Source: an uncultured Lentisphaerales bacterium
Lineage (GTDB): Bacteria > Verrucomicrobiota > Lentisphaeria > JABSQK01 > JAJFLO01
Assembly: GCA_964615975.1 (NCBI GenBank)
Contig: CAZTTH010000008.1
Coordinates: 13,814 to 77,813, forward strand
Direction of reading: 5' to 3'
Length of the DNA stretch: 64,000 nt
Shown: positions 60,633 to 64,000 of the stretch, in pieces
Numbering within the stretch: the first letter of the stretch is position 1
Layout of the letters: each line of letters opens with the position of its first letter
Position numbers and translations under genes: made by a program
The notes under the pieces: model-generated
The model's input: the letters and a program-made list of their open reading frames with translations, nothing else
The model's database searches: none
Told to the model about the DNA's origin: nothing

Positions 60633-62219
60633 TCATTGGGGTACAAATTGTGGTATGGTTGGGGGAAAAGACAGACTTCCGCCAAGTAGGGGTAGAATCA
60701 GTTGCCGCAAGGTGATATCCGTGGTGGTGGCCGCGATTTCCTGGAGTAATATTGTCCCCTTATCAGGTTGAAAACGGAGTAAATGGGTGAGGACTTGCTG
60801 GCGCAATAACTGATCCTTGTCAGCCAGGGTTTGGGTGGTGATTGTTTCCCAATTGTCCAGCTGGCGACGAATGATTTCTCCCACTGCGTCTGAACGAATC
60901 GATTGTTGATCGTCGAGCATTAATTCTTCCAGCAGCAATGCGGCATCCCCATTGTTGAGTCGCCGGGAGAGCAGAATAGCGGTTTTGCGGTTGTCACCAA
61001 AACGACTTTTAGCCAGTGACATAAGTTGGGCGGTGGTTGGTTGTGGAATGCGGGGTAATAATTGTTCTGCAGCCTCGCGCACCGACCTGTCATTGTCGCA
61101 TGCCAAACTAAATAGCAGCTCAACATCTGATTCGAAACGATAGTGTAATCCGTATGTTTTCAATGCCATGGTGCGATAGCCGGGATTCGGATGTTTCATG
61201 AGTTCCTGCAAAGCAGTCCTGCCGGAATCTCCCAATACTGGCATTGATTGAATAATGGATTCCGCGAGTGTGGGATCGATTCGCGGATCATCAAGTGCTT
61301 GTCGCAATGTTTTATCGTGAGCTGGTTGACCGTGAAGAAGTAATTTTAAGCGTGCGGAATGCGCAATTTCAAAATCGCTGTCTTTGATCATTTCTTCTAG
61401 GATTTTATCTGCGCGTTTGTCATTGAATTGACCTAATATTTGGGTAAGGCGTTTACGGATGGAAATATCAGGATCCTGAGTCAGTCTGGCAATGGTCTCG
61501 AAGAGCTCCGGCATCGACAATGTTATTGATGCCGCCTGCAACGCCAACATGCGGACATCGCGATCGGCATCCAGTAATAATTTTTTTAAGTTCTCGGCGG
61601 GTAAAATTGTTTGGAAATAATGGTAATAGGTTATCATGTTTTTTCGCACGGTGACATCGCTATCCGCAAAGGCTTTTACCAGTGCGACTTTCAATTGTTC
61701 GTCAAACTCCTGTCCCGGCGTGATAATAATACCCCAACTCCGGAAGCGAAAAATTTCCGGAATATAAGATGAAATAATGCGTCGGATATAAACGTCTTCA
61801 TCGGCGATCATCTCCAGCATCGTTTGGGCGATGGTGGCGGGAATAGCTTTTTTTTCGGTAAGTGATACCAGGGCTGAACGACGAATTAGGGAAGCTGGAT
61901 CTCGCAATGATTTCTGAATTCCCAGCATAGCATTCGGTTGATTATATTTGCCCAATATCAACACCGCACGTTGACGGACTTCCACCTGTGTGGAATTCAA
62001 ATCGGCAAGGCATTTGGCAATGGTTTCCTCTTCCGTTTCTACTCCAGATATGAAAGGTTGGTTTTGGCAGTATCCTGATTGCATAATCAGCACAAATGCC
62101 CCCAGAATGATGACAGAATTGAAATACGGGAAACTAACCCCCTGAAAAACCCAAGTTTTTGTCAATGCCTGAAACATGGTAATTTCTGCTACTCTTTTTC
62201 GTCCTCCTATCCCTATCAT
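60633..62219 (-). CDS. HEAT/ARM-repeat protein with N-terminal signal-like segment
   Basis: Multiple ..DxxVRxxAxxxLG.. repeats. Confidence 0.55.
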   Translation of the reverse strand: MIGIGGRKRVAEITMFQALTKTWVFQGVSFPYFNSVIILGAFVLIMQSGYCQNQPFISGVETEEETIAKCLADLNSTQVEVRQRAVLILGKYNQPNAMLGIQKSLRDPASLIRRSALVSLTEKKAIPATIAQTMLEMIADEDVYIRRIISSYIPEIFRFRSWGIIITPGQEFDEQLKVALVKAFADSDVTVRKNMITYYHYFQTILPAENLKKLLLDADRDVRMLALQAASITLSMPELFETIARLTQDPDISIRKRLTQILGQFNDKRADKILEEMIKDSDFEIAHSARLKLLLHGQPAHDKTLRQALDDPRIDPTLAESIIQSMPVLGDSGRTALQELMKHPNPGYRTMALKTYGLHYRFESDVELLFSLACDNDRSVREAAEQLLPRIPQPTTAQLMSLAKSRFGDNRKTAILLSRRLNNGDAALLLEELMLDDQQSIRSDAVGEIIRRQLDNWETITTQTLADKDQLLRQQVLTHLLRFQPDKGTILLQEIAATTTDITLRQLILPLLGGSLSFPPTIPQFVPQ

Positions 62220-62731
62220 TTTCGTTTACCTTTCTTTCCTTGAGTGCTTACTCATCGGATCGGATGCAAGTAACTCTTTGCCGTAAAAGCAATTATCCGG
62301 CATATCGCATTAAGTCATTTTGGTCTCAAGACCAAAGCGTAATCATTACAGACTGCTGAAGGGGGATGACACATTTTTTTTCACTCATAGAATTTTAATT
62401 CACCAATCAATTAACTGCCTGGAAGCCCTTCTCGGCTTTTCCCGCTGACGTAAACCGATACGAATGTGTGCTTTCTGAGACCTACCCTGATTGGTTATAC
62501 CCTCAATAATGATTTATGTTGCAATTCCCACTTCCAATATTGGGAAGGGAATCATCTCTCAGTAATATCTCTTCAGGGAGAACAGTATCGACCGCGTATA
62601 ACACCACAGAGAGGTCCTGAGCCTGACATTACATGTTTAACGGCCATTATTTGAAAGATTGGTGAACGGTTGTGCAACGGAGTGTGGATATTCGCAGAGA
62701 ACCGCATTGATCAAAATCCCAGCTTGGATCT

Positions 62732-63832
62732 TTACAATTTACCAATCCGTTTTAAAACGCGAAGTATGTCGTCACCGCTGTTGCCGTGTGAGGCCGCGAC
62801 GTCGCGAGCTTCCATGCCAAGGTCTACTTCTAATTTAGGCAAAGTCACATATTGGTCGACTGCTTTTTTTACTCGGGTTCGTTTATGATGACCGGAAATT
62901 TGATTGAAATCATCGACTAATTCGAGCGGTTTACGTGAATATAATACCGACACGGTAATCAAGGGTTTCTTTATTTGTGGATTGTGGATTACACTGTAAA
63001 TCGGCGACACTCCATCCGTGGCAAAAAAATCAATAATATCATAAAACTTTGAGGTTAATTCGGGATCAGGCAATTCCAATAGGAACAGCGCTTCAATTGC
63101 TCCTTCTGGCGCCAACAACAATGGATTATGATGATTTTGATATTGGGTTCCAAACGACTTATTGGGATCAAATACAAACTGACAAAAGTGATTAAAATAT
63201 GGCTTGCTTTTGTACAGCGAAAAATCTTCGTGATCAATATTGCCATCCAGATTGGCAAGCTTAGCGTTTTTATCCGGAATAATGAGAAATTGCCGCAAGG
63301 AATCGATTACCATTTCATTATATGTTTTTTCAGCCAATCTTTCTGTGAACTTTACCCGGTTCGAGAATAATACCATATTTCCCGTATTTCCAGTATCGAT
63401 GGCTGCGGAAACCGGACCTTGTAAAAATATCAAGGTATTATCAACATATTCAGATGCTTCCAATTCTGGATATGGAAGAACAAACACAAACATGGTTTTG
63501 TTCGCTAGGGGTATGGTTTCATTCCCACTCAATCTTTCAAGTATTTGCGAGCAGATCCCATTGCCGGTGCCACCGCCTGTAGAACTAAAAACGATGTTGC
63601 CTCGTATAATTTCAAGAAGTTTATCGCTGATGGAATGGTATGCCTCTCGACCAATCTGGGGTTCTTTCCTGGCGCCCTTGAATTGATCCTTATATGAATG
63701 GATGACTGCCCGTATTTTTTCCTGTGCGGCCACCTTGTCCAGTTCCACCTCAGAAATATTCACAATTATCGCCTCACCATTATCCAATAATGAAGCCAAC
63801 TTGCTGCCTGCTCCGCCGATGCCAATACTCAT
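62732..63832 (-). CDS. Divergent tubulin/FtsZ-superfamily GTPase (366 aa), not canonical FtsZ
   Basis: N-terminal IGIGGAGSKLA (like IGVGGGGGNA) and tubulin signature VFSSTGGGTGNG (GGGTGxG). No FtsZ C-terminal tail. Confidence 0.55.
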   Translation of the reverse strand: MSIGIGGAGSKLASLLDNGEAIIVNISEVELDKVAAQEKIRAVIHSYKDQFKGARKEPQIGREAYHSISDKLLEIIRGNIVFSSTGGGTGNGICSQILERLSGNETIPLANKTMFVFVLPYPELEASEYVDNTLIFLQGPVSAAIDTGNTGNMVLFSNRVKFTERLAEKTYNEMVIDSLRQFLIIPDKNAKLANLDGNIDHEDFSLYKSKPYFNHFCQFVFDPNKSFGTQYQNHHNPLLLAPEGAIEALFLLELPDPELTSKFYDIIDFFATDGVSPIYSVIHNPQIKKPLITVSVLYSRKPLELVDDFNQISGHHKRTRVKKAVDQYVTLPKLEVDLGMEARDVAASHGNSGDDILRVLKRIGKL

Positions 63833-63835
63833 GTT

Positions 63836-63997
63836 TTAGCCCTCCAGAAAAAGAGATGATTTGGTGGTGAATGATCGTTGTTTTATTAATATTTCCAATG
63901 CTTTTGCGCCTTCCTTGGTGATATAAAGATTGCGCCGATTTTGCTCCAATAGAATGGCAATAAAACACAGCAGTGAAAGCGATTCGATATATGTCAT
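63836..63997 (-). CDS. Small ORF (53 aa from the ATG at 63997) ending 4 nt upstream of the tubulin-like gene; it may instead be the 3' end of a longer gene that starts beyond the window edge
   Basis: Translation is MTYIESLSLLCFIAILLEQNRRNLYITKEGAKALEILIKQRSFTTKSSLFLEG*. The frame is still open at the window edge. Confidence 0.3.
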   Translation of the reverse strand: MTYIESLSLLCFIAILLEQNRRNLYITKEGAKALEILIKQRSFTTKSSLFLEG

Positions 63998-64000
63998 TGC

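Follow-up and report, generated by a model that had tools for sequence, protein, structure and literature searches.

The end of a 64,000-nucleotide stretch of DNA from an uncultured Lentisphaerales bacterium (the window in the following; G000:C8:13814-77813) carries a two-gene cassette, which consists of the gene for a divergent GTPase of the tubulin/FtsZ superfamily and, directly upstream of it, the gene for a small winged-helix protein. With a probability of about 60%, this cassette is a TubZRC-like (type III partition-like) module that became a fixed part of Lentisphaerota chromosomes and is inherited vertically. The reading is based on the TubZ-like fold of the GTPase model, on the match of its partner to TubR and on repeat arrays upstream of both genes. 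The gene of the TubZ-like tubulin/FtsZ-superfamily GTPase is located at 62732..63832 on the minus strand, and its open reading frame (ORF) translates to 366 amino acids. The window holds, on the same strand, the 3' part of the TubR-like winged-helix gene as an ORF at 63836..64000 (last 54 codons and the stop codon), while the whole gene, encoding 112 amino acids, reaches window-equivalent 64174 (63836-64174; C8:77649-77987, or 1650-1988 of locus L004, which spans C8:76000-95999). The initial annotation, a reading of the window alone, was right in describing an upstream ORF that leaves the window and in placing the GTPase gene last in its operon, where it is the second of two genes.

The GTPase: sequence family and structure model

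The 366-amino-acid protein is a real, very divergent bacterial GTPase of the tubulin/FtsZ superfamily, as had been proposed from its letters. It matches the Pfam family Tubulin (PF00091) with 33.9 bits (cut-off 33, E 4.9e-8), and this family was likewise matched by all 48 aligned homologues (best E 1.6e-10). The T1 loop GIGGAG comprises residues 4-9 (within IGIGGAGSKLA, 3-13) and the T4 signature GGGTGNG residues 86-92 (within STGGGTGNG, 84-92), both of which the initial annotation had already pointed out. The alignment of the 48 sequences features 61 invariant columns with all GTPase motifs among them, including G4, G6, G7 and G9 in the T1 loop, G86-G87-G88-T89-G90 and G92 in the T4 loop, and further D146, G148, N149, G151, N152, G197, D200 and D203. 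The last two residues belong to a T7-like element, N198-I-D200-H-E-D203. As the model places this NxDxxD pattern between H7 and H8, the GTPase probably retains what is needed for assembly-stimulated GTP hydrolysis, judged from the motif and its position.

An AlphaFold2 model based on the 48-sequence alignment (predicted local distance difference test, pLDDT, 88.4; predicted template-modelling score 0.82) shows the complete two-domain tubulin/FtsZ fold. The model begins at strand S1 (E2-5) with no N-terminal helix ahead and includes core helix H7 (about 168-191), a C-terminal domain (193-298) and a long helix (302-327), which is followed by a tail of lower confidence. A Foldseek search with this model matched at least 500 FtsZ, TubZ or tubulin chains and reached E 3.5e-18 to FtsZ. 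This full two-domain fold and the strength of the match rule out that the GGGTGNG motif had been met by chance.

Within the superfamily, the modelled fold is most similar to TubZ. The top query template-modelling (TM) score in Foldseek was that of B. cereus TubZ (4ei7_B, 0.71), compared to 0.62-0.64 for FtsZ. Structural alignment with VIA-align gave Z 22-29 over about 280-320 residues overall, with seven top rows that were all TubZ (Z 28.9-24.9), led by 4ei7_A (Z 28.9, root mean square deviation (rmsd) 2.8, 305 aligned residues). In detail, B. thuringiensis TubZ was found at Z 27.7-24.9 and TubZ of phage c-st at Z 26.7 and 26.1, followed by CetZ2 (24.7), FtsZ (24.4 or less) and PhuZ (21.5-22.1). 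In the TubZ rows, the alignment continues up to model residues 320-340 and covers the long C-terminal helix, whereas with FtsZ it ends near residue 300. The sequence identity to TubZ in these alignments is just 14-19%. As a lead only, phage tubulins make up most of the nearest ESM-Atlas clusters, and some of these carry TubZ C-terminal Pfam families.

The C-terminal linker and tail had been described as missing, which was not borne out: the protein features the long helix, a variable segment (about 311-355) and, at its very end, a conserved amphipathic peptide with LKRIGKL as last residues. Throughout the family, this peptide, (V/I)L..LKR(I/L)GKL, belongs to the best-conserved parts of the GTPase and is preceded by a variable stretch. 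The last 13 residues correspond to an amphipathic, net-positive helix with a mean hydrophobic moment of 0.60 vs 0.34 in shuffles.

Apart from PF00091, only chance-level Pfam matches occurred in the family at E <=1, and the 366-amino-acid protein showed no match to CetZ_C. A phmmer search against PDB sequences aligned FtsZ and tubulin over the first ~100 residues of the GTPase only (E ~0.003). In a word-indexed search, 326 homologues were found; the best 120 of these are 52-66% identical and nearly all 364-367 amino acids long, are called "hypothetical" where named, and come, where the source is given, from Lentisphaeria, Victivallales or Verrucomicrobiota. An exhaustive phmmer search of 1.84 billion cluster representatives yielded 32 matches, including three full-length clusters with 55, 43 and 43% identity. 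All of them belong to the same family except the weakest, a 136-amino-acid fragment with 33% identity, and this single-sequence search gave no bridge to TubZ or FtsZ. With so few matches and only three full-length clusters, the family is small and isolated in sequence space.

The distinction from the division protein FtsZ, which had also been suggested from the sequence, was confirmed. The GTPase scored 20.3 bits with the NCBIfam FtsZ model TIGR00065, below the cut-off of 295.2, and FtsZ_C was matched neither by the GTPase nor by any of the 48 family members. Its locus lies outside the division gene cluster, with the winged-helix gene and unrelated genes as neighbours. The canonical ftsZ that the initial annotation recommended looking for was found on contig C14 of the same genome, in a separate ftsA-ftsZ pair. 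There, ftsA (TIGR01174 232.5 bits, cut-off 175.85) is directly followed by the gene of a 401-amino-acid FtsZ with matches to Tubulin (PF00091, 56.8 bits) and FtsZ_C (38.6 bits); TIGR00065 aligned over its full length with 137.6 bits, which is again below the cut-off of 295.2. This division FtsZ (pair at C14:29291-31780; L001 202-2691) is thus divergent itself and possesses the T4 loop GRGTGSGG.

The partner gene, the operon and its upstream repeats

The 112-amino-acid partner matched no Pfam, NCBIfam or PHROG family, and no defence-system match was obtained in PADLOC for either protein. Its AlphaFold2 model (pLDDT 92.9) features a winged helix with an additional N-terminal helix and C-terminal helices. 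The top Foldseek match of this model among 350,542 chains was TubR of B. megaterium pBM400 (4asn_A; E 7e-4, target TM-score 0.81, rmsd 2.1, 20% identity), and B. thuringiensis TubR entries rank further down the list. Likewise, a profile of 14 partner orthologues compared with 177,635 PDB sequences ranked TubR of pBM400 first. Homology to TubR in particular is probable rather than proven. An invariant TRTKQ opens the third helix, and the wing hairpin features the invariant residues N79 and R80 together with a near-invariant N82 (NR[KR]N). In addition, a conserved SxFLE(G) peptide at the end of the protein lies outside the DNA-binding domain. Prediction of a complex of both proteins gave a weak score of 0.43 vs 0.00 for the best control; the mark applied to this score was passed by 58/80 solved complexes and 2/110 mismatched pairs, and scores in the range up to 0.60 came from no more than 7 of these 80 complexes and from both of the passing mismatches. 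The runs agreed in at least 37% of contacts, with a partner pLDDT of at least 80.

The two genes are tightly linked. Only 3 nt separate the stop codon of the partner gene from the ATG of the GTPase gene, and each of the genes is provided with a Shine-Dalgarno-like sequence. On the 5' side of the partner gene, 333 nt of intergenic DNA are followed by a divergently transcribed MazG-like gene, from which it follows that the operon comprises two genes only. This arrangement is strictly kept: the partner gene was found directly upstream of the GTPase gene at 14/14, 80/80 and 2/2 loci, i.e., 96/96, and the genes flanking the cassette vary between genomes. The partner gene is present as a single copy in its own genome.

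The intergenic DNA 5' of the partner gene contains AT-rich repeats in two pentamer blocks. Both TAGTA arrays are situated beyond the window (together L004 2096-2140), the first at window-equivalent 64282-64301 (C8:78095-78114) and the second at 64312-64326 (C8:78125-78139). The motif TAGTATA, counted on either strand, was found in 14/14 upstream regions with 28 copies vs 3.7 in shuffles, and none of 500 shuffles matched more than 8/14 loci. It was also present in 61/76 further upstream regions, with 105 copies compared to 11 in shuffles, which amounts to an 8- to 10-fold enrichment over shuffles in 90 related upstream regions. Aligned occurrences revealed a 5-bp periodicity, i.e., tandem TAGTA/TAGTG pentamers, which often occur in inverted pairs, e.g., ACTATACTGTAGTATAGT. 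The motif was even detected upstream of the two most divergent members (43% identity), as well as in Oligosphaera ethanolica, where the upstream region is GC-rich.

In the 3.84-Mb genome of the window itself, the only two arrays of at least three tandem [TC]AGT[AGT] pentamers are those of this intergenic region; the reversed pentamer formed five scattered arrays. Similarly, three of the four genomic copies of the 9-mer TAGTATAGT are located here. Neither the exact 9-mer nor a strict IUPAC pattern of three pentamers was informative about uniqueness in other genomes, since the arrays are arranged differently and are more degenerate there. In known TubZRC systems, repeats 5' of the adaptor gene, arranged in blocks and overlapping the promoter, are common to all (PMC6009700), and TubR both represses its operon and couples the DNA to TubZ (PMC6009700, PMC5322520).

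The operon lies 3-6 kb from pheS and nadE in its own genome. No tRNA, integrase or phage genes were found near it, and no Rfam family reached its gathering score within the 20-kb locus. A scan for promoters and terminators yielded nothing over shuffle expectation and no terminator 3' of the GTPase gene, and among public runs, no RNA run was listed as containing the sequence. The best public DNA run for the cassette is a sand metagenome, which may be the source sample.

Among the neighbouring genes, the divergent one encodes a MazG/PRA-PH-like nucleotide pyrophosphohydrolase (L004 2322-2759, plus strand; window-equivalent 64508-64945) with PF01503 at 38.9 bits and phrog_671 at E 6.4e-23; it borders the same repeat-bearing intergenic region and is not kept at other loci. 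Downstream of the operon and on the same strand, a HEAT-repeat protein of 528 amino acids is encoded (60633-62219, minus strand; HEAT_2 93 bits) that features a hydrophobic N-terminal segment, and its gene is not kept beside the cassette in other genomes either. The noncoding gap in between, given as 510 bp in the initial annotation, measures 512 nt (62220-62731) and contains no Rfam match, terminator-like site or conserved ORF. Farther away, a two-partner secretion (TPS) locus occupies L004 3483-9847 and 10701-13859 (plus strand). Its ShlB/FhaC-type transporter (PF03865 60.8 bits) carries an unusually long fused N-terminal region of more than 1000 amino acids rich in Glu, Lys and Ala. A 771-amino-acid ORF before the transporter is probably part of the same gene, divided by a run of N, and the TPS-domain exoprotein after it (PF05860 77.7 bits) is also broken by N.

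Chromosomal inheritance, proposed mechanism and rival readings

The cassette was found in 17/201 sampled genomes of the phylum, all of them belonging to the class of the window and carrying one copy each, and six families had it in all of their sampled genomes. Screening of species genomes extended the carriers to 99, including the cultured Oligosphaera ethanolica. In ~99 species, the GTPase has a constant length of 363-367 amino acids with intact frames. The contigs that bear the cassette are of chromosomal size (8.78 Mb, 1.2 Mb, 3.08 Mb, 1.95 Mb and, in Oligosphaera ethanolica DSM 24202, 5.73 Mb); dnaA is present on three of these five, and the contigs with the single-copy cassette bear either dnaA or housekeeping genes. 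The identity of the GTPases to the window protein tracks that of PheS with a Spearman coefficient of 0.85 (n=16 related and hence non-independent genomes), the ranges being alike (46-64% vs 45-71%). Pairwise identities of GTPase and partner co-vary as well (Spearman 0.62), and taxonomic labels cluster on the protein tree with 10 changes vs 17.6 in shuffles. The strict pairing, the chromosomal single copy, the PheS-like divergence and the lack of relatives on mobile elements, which is detailed below, indicate that the pair belongs to the host and is subject to strong purifying selection, and is no passenger of mobile elements.

Some carriers bear unexpected labels. Their submitters assigned nine of them (L043, L055, L061, L074, L075, L078, L085, L096, L101) to Kiritimatiellales, Pontiella or Tichowtungia, and these nine group in a single clade of the protein tree. 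In the four of these Kiritimatiellota-labelled carriers that were tested, PheS is 57-60% identical to that of the window, the same as in Lentisphaeria, and mislabelling or shared class membership is here equally likely as a transfer. For single carriers with the labels Bacteroidaceae, Anaerovoracaceae and Deltaproteobacteria, wrong binning or a wrong label is probable; the copies labelled Bacteroidaceae and Anaerovoracaceae are identical or nearly identical to a Lentisphaeraceae copy.

According to the TubZRC-like reading, the TubR-like protein would bind the TAGTA arrays ~100-300 nt upstream of its own gene, and this binding would lead to autoregulation of the operon as well as to a nucleoprotein complex at a single chromosomal site. 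The TubZ-like GTPase would polymerise with GTP into dynamic filaments, with GTP hydrolysis driven by the acidic T7 residues D200 and D203. The filament might then couple to the TubR-DNA complex and move or position that locus, probably through the terminal peptides of both proteins, LKR(I/L)GKL of the GTPase and SxFLE(G) of the adaptor. DNA binding, polymerisation, the contact of adaptor and filament and any role in DNA segregation are inferred. The further step, in which a part of the ParB-poor Lentisphaerota would employ a tubulin-family filament with its dedicated centromere-like site and adaptor to move or position a region of the host's own chromosome, appears unlikely but worth considering.

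Several findings weigh against the TubZRC-like reading. At the level of sequence, no TubZ C-terminal Pfam family was matched in the GTPase family at E <=1, and a PHROG match to PhuZ was marginal (E 0.056 over 27 residues). The best PDB match of the family profile was FtsZ1 of Odinarchaeota (2e-7, residues 2-107), and the profile also matched TubZ/RepX of B. cereus (E 2.6e-6, residues 18-169); since it matches both, sequence alone does not assign the GTPase to TubZ over FtsZ. For the partner, the profile alignment with TubR is near full length (2-92 of 105), with a marginal E of 0.049. In VIA-align, TubR (6aht_B of B. cereus and 4asn_A of pBM400) reached Z 11.9 and thereby ties with MepR, RosR and MarR (12.2-11.5) and PadR-type winged helices, so that the fold of the partner alone is generic. 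No conserved third gene, and none resembling TubY, stands beside the cassette at the loci inspected.

Other points concern replicon and distribution. Known TubZRC systems are located on low-copy plasmids and prophages, whereas the cassette is chromosomal. The module shares structure, gene order and repeats with TubZRC but differs from it in the type of replicon and in sequence-level family membership. Within the class, two sister families gave 0/32 and 0/17 carriers, and the family profile found no match in five genomes (97-99% complete) of these two families. The cassette is therefore dispensable in close relatives, which counts against a role in chromosome segregation. An origin-proximal centromere was rejected, as the locus and dnaA are separated by 26%, 31% and about 45% of the chromosome in three genomes that are closed or nearly closed. 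Nor does ParB offer any help: it was above the cut-off in only 2/36 genomes of the class, with cassette or without.

The window's own genome, which is 92% complete, gave no match to ParB (TIGR00180), and the lineage seems to be largely without a canonical chromosomal ParABS system. An anti-correlation of ParB and cassette was considered and rejected, because ParB is scarce throughout the class and also missing from the cassette-free family f3, leaving no informative complementarity.

The rival reading that survives best, unlikely but to be taken seriously, sees a lineage-specific cytoskeletal paralogue combined with its own transcription factor, an autorepressor or activator at a TAGTA operator, with no DNA as cargo. 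The filament would then serve cell shape, division support or a membrane-associated scaffold, and the positively charged amphipathic peptide of the GTPase could be a membrane anchor instead of an adaptor-binding tail, as it resembles membrane-targeting sequences. The generic fold of the partner, common to pure regulators such as MarR, PadR and MepR, fits with this, as do the position of the repeats in the promoter region, the distance of the locus from the origin and the divergence of the lineage's FtsZ; moreover, the chromosomal TubZ of some Clostridia is thought not to segregate DNA (PMC7762940). Still, a mere regulator would hardly be tied to its only apparent target at 96/96 loci and carry a conserved SxFLE peptide, which together are a hallmark of an adaptor. 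Furthermore, the top PDB match of each protein is a component of the same known machine, in which the two act as partners, and the complex prediction weakly favours their contact.

Far less probable is that the cassette is a decaying or selfish relic, functionless for the host, of the partition genes of an integrated plasmid or prophage. TubZRC is otherwise borne by plasmids or phages (PMC6009700, PMC5322520), the neighbouring MazG-like gene has its strong phage-family match, the flanking genes vary between genomes and the nearest ESM-Atlas clusters are mostly viral. Against such an origin stand the intact frames at nearly constant length, the 61 invariant columns with all GTPase motifs, the divergence in step with PheS, the single copy in all sampled genomes of six families and the lack of integrase, tRNA or phage genes nearby. 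In addition, tblastn against 72,556 plasmids and 50,697 phages revealed no relative at E <=0.01, and a scan of IMG/VR found none either; a plasmid or phage origin was rejected on these grounds, and the same absence speaks to some degree against the TubZRC-like reading as well.

The initial annotation had likened the GTPase to FtsZ-like families in membrane remodelling. Membership in FtsZl1/FtsZl2 (Tubulin_2) is hardly credible and was rejected: a divergent superfamily protein does coexist here with a conventional FtsZ and 6/48 family members gave sub-threshold matches to Tubulin_2 (best E 0.0081), but the 366-amino-acid protein itself does not match PF13809 at E <=1, features no coiled coil, possesses a complete C-terminal domain including H7 and T7 and has no vWA, GTPase, OmpA or kinase neighbours in any locus inspected, and FtsZl2 is proteobacterial with a C-terminal region of ~300 amino acids and without gene associations (PMC2875224). 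Both structure and gene context favour TubZ/TubR over membrane remodelling.

Beyond a few Bacillus plasmids and clostridial phages, TubZRC is not known to occur, and no bacterial chromosome is known to depend on it. In the TubZRC-like reading, repeats, adaptor and tubulin-like motor together form a stable chromosomal trait with housekeeping-like conservation in about a hundred species of one lineage within the Planctomycetes-Verrucomicrobia-Chlamydiae (PVC) group. If the module handled chromosomal DNA, it would widen the repertoire of bacterial chromosome organization, provide a bacterial case in which a filament of the tubulin family acts on its host's genome, and represent the first tubulin-based chromosome-handling apparatus in bacteria, i.e., a host-domesticated type III partition machine. 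If the adaptor were only a regulator, the cassette would still add to the tubulin superfamily a new branch, isolated in sequence and equipped with a defined operator, and would be useful for studying the domestication of plasmid machines. The function of the module is directly testable, since a cultured host exists with Oligosphaera ethanolica DSM 24202.

Comparison with known systems

CetZ and PhuZ possess folds comparable to that of the GTPase model (CetZ2 Z 24.7; PhuZ Z 21.5-22.1), and PhuZ also positions DNA. Nevertheless, both are weaker structural matches than TubZ, CetZ_C is missing from the GTPase and the gene context is unlike that of the cassette. FtsZ resembles the GTPase in its fold (Foldseek E 3.5e-18, Z about 24), its T1 and T4 motifs and the NxDxxD pattern of T7, while the GTPase differs from it by a score far below the TIGR00065 cut-off, by the lack of FtsZ_C and by its location outside the division cluster.

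The FtsZ-like families of Makarova and Koonin correspond to the Pfam Tubulin_2 proteins (PMC9871819). FtsZl1 comprises ~1000 amino acids with a coiled coil and an alpha-helical C-domain, is encoded in operons with vWA, GTPase, OmpA or kinase genes and features no recognisable T6-H7 (PMC2875224). FtsZl1 and FtsZl2 share with the GTPase that they are divergent superfamily proteins coexisting with a conventional FtsZ; in contrast, architecture, size, Pfam family, operon partners and taxonomic range are different. A survey of the family that builds on PF00091 makes no mention of PVC bacteria or Lentisphaerota (PMC9871819), and full-text searches of the literature brought up no account of any pair resembling TubR/TubZ, be it in Lentisphaerota or in other PVC bacteria.

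Some Clostridia feature a chromosomal TubZ together with TubY but without TubR, in hosts that have Soj/Spo0J, and a role other than plasmid segregation was suggested for it (PMC7762940). As in the cassette, a TubZ homologue is thus found on a chromosome. Unlike in Clostridia, the cassette always includes a TubR-like adaptor and repeats, with no TubY-like gene beside it, and ParB was not found.

The closest known system is TubZ-TubR-tubC of the Bacillus plasmids pBtoxis, pXO1 and pBM400 and the C. botulinum prophage c-st. It is distinguished from the cassette by its occurrence on plasmids and phages of Bacillota, compared to a chromosomal, single-copy and vertically inherited cassette in Lentisphaerota. 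Further differences are the low identity of the GTPase to TubZ (14-19%) with no TubZ C-terminal Pfam family, the adaptor without any Pfam family, the absence of a TubY-like gene nearby and a GTPase model that lacks an N-terminal helix before S1. The repeats differ likewise, as the cassette features 5-bp TAGTA pentamers in direct and inverted arrays, whereas TTGAC and A/TGAA iterons are reported for tubC of prophage c-st (PMC6009700). The GTPase is structurally closest to TubZ, with a long C-terminal helix and a subsequent tail, and its 366 amino acids are within the range of the crystallised c-st TubZ chains (about 300 residues resolved). The adaptor has TubR as its top PDB match, and the repeats 5' of its gene overlap the promoter region. 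Finally, repeats, adaptor and GTPase are arranged in the same layout in both systems (PMC6009700).

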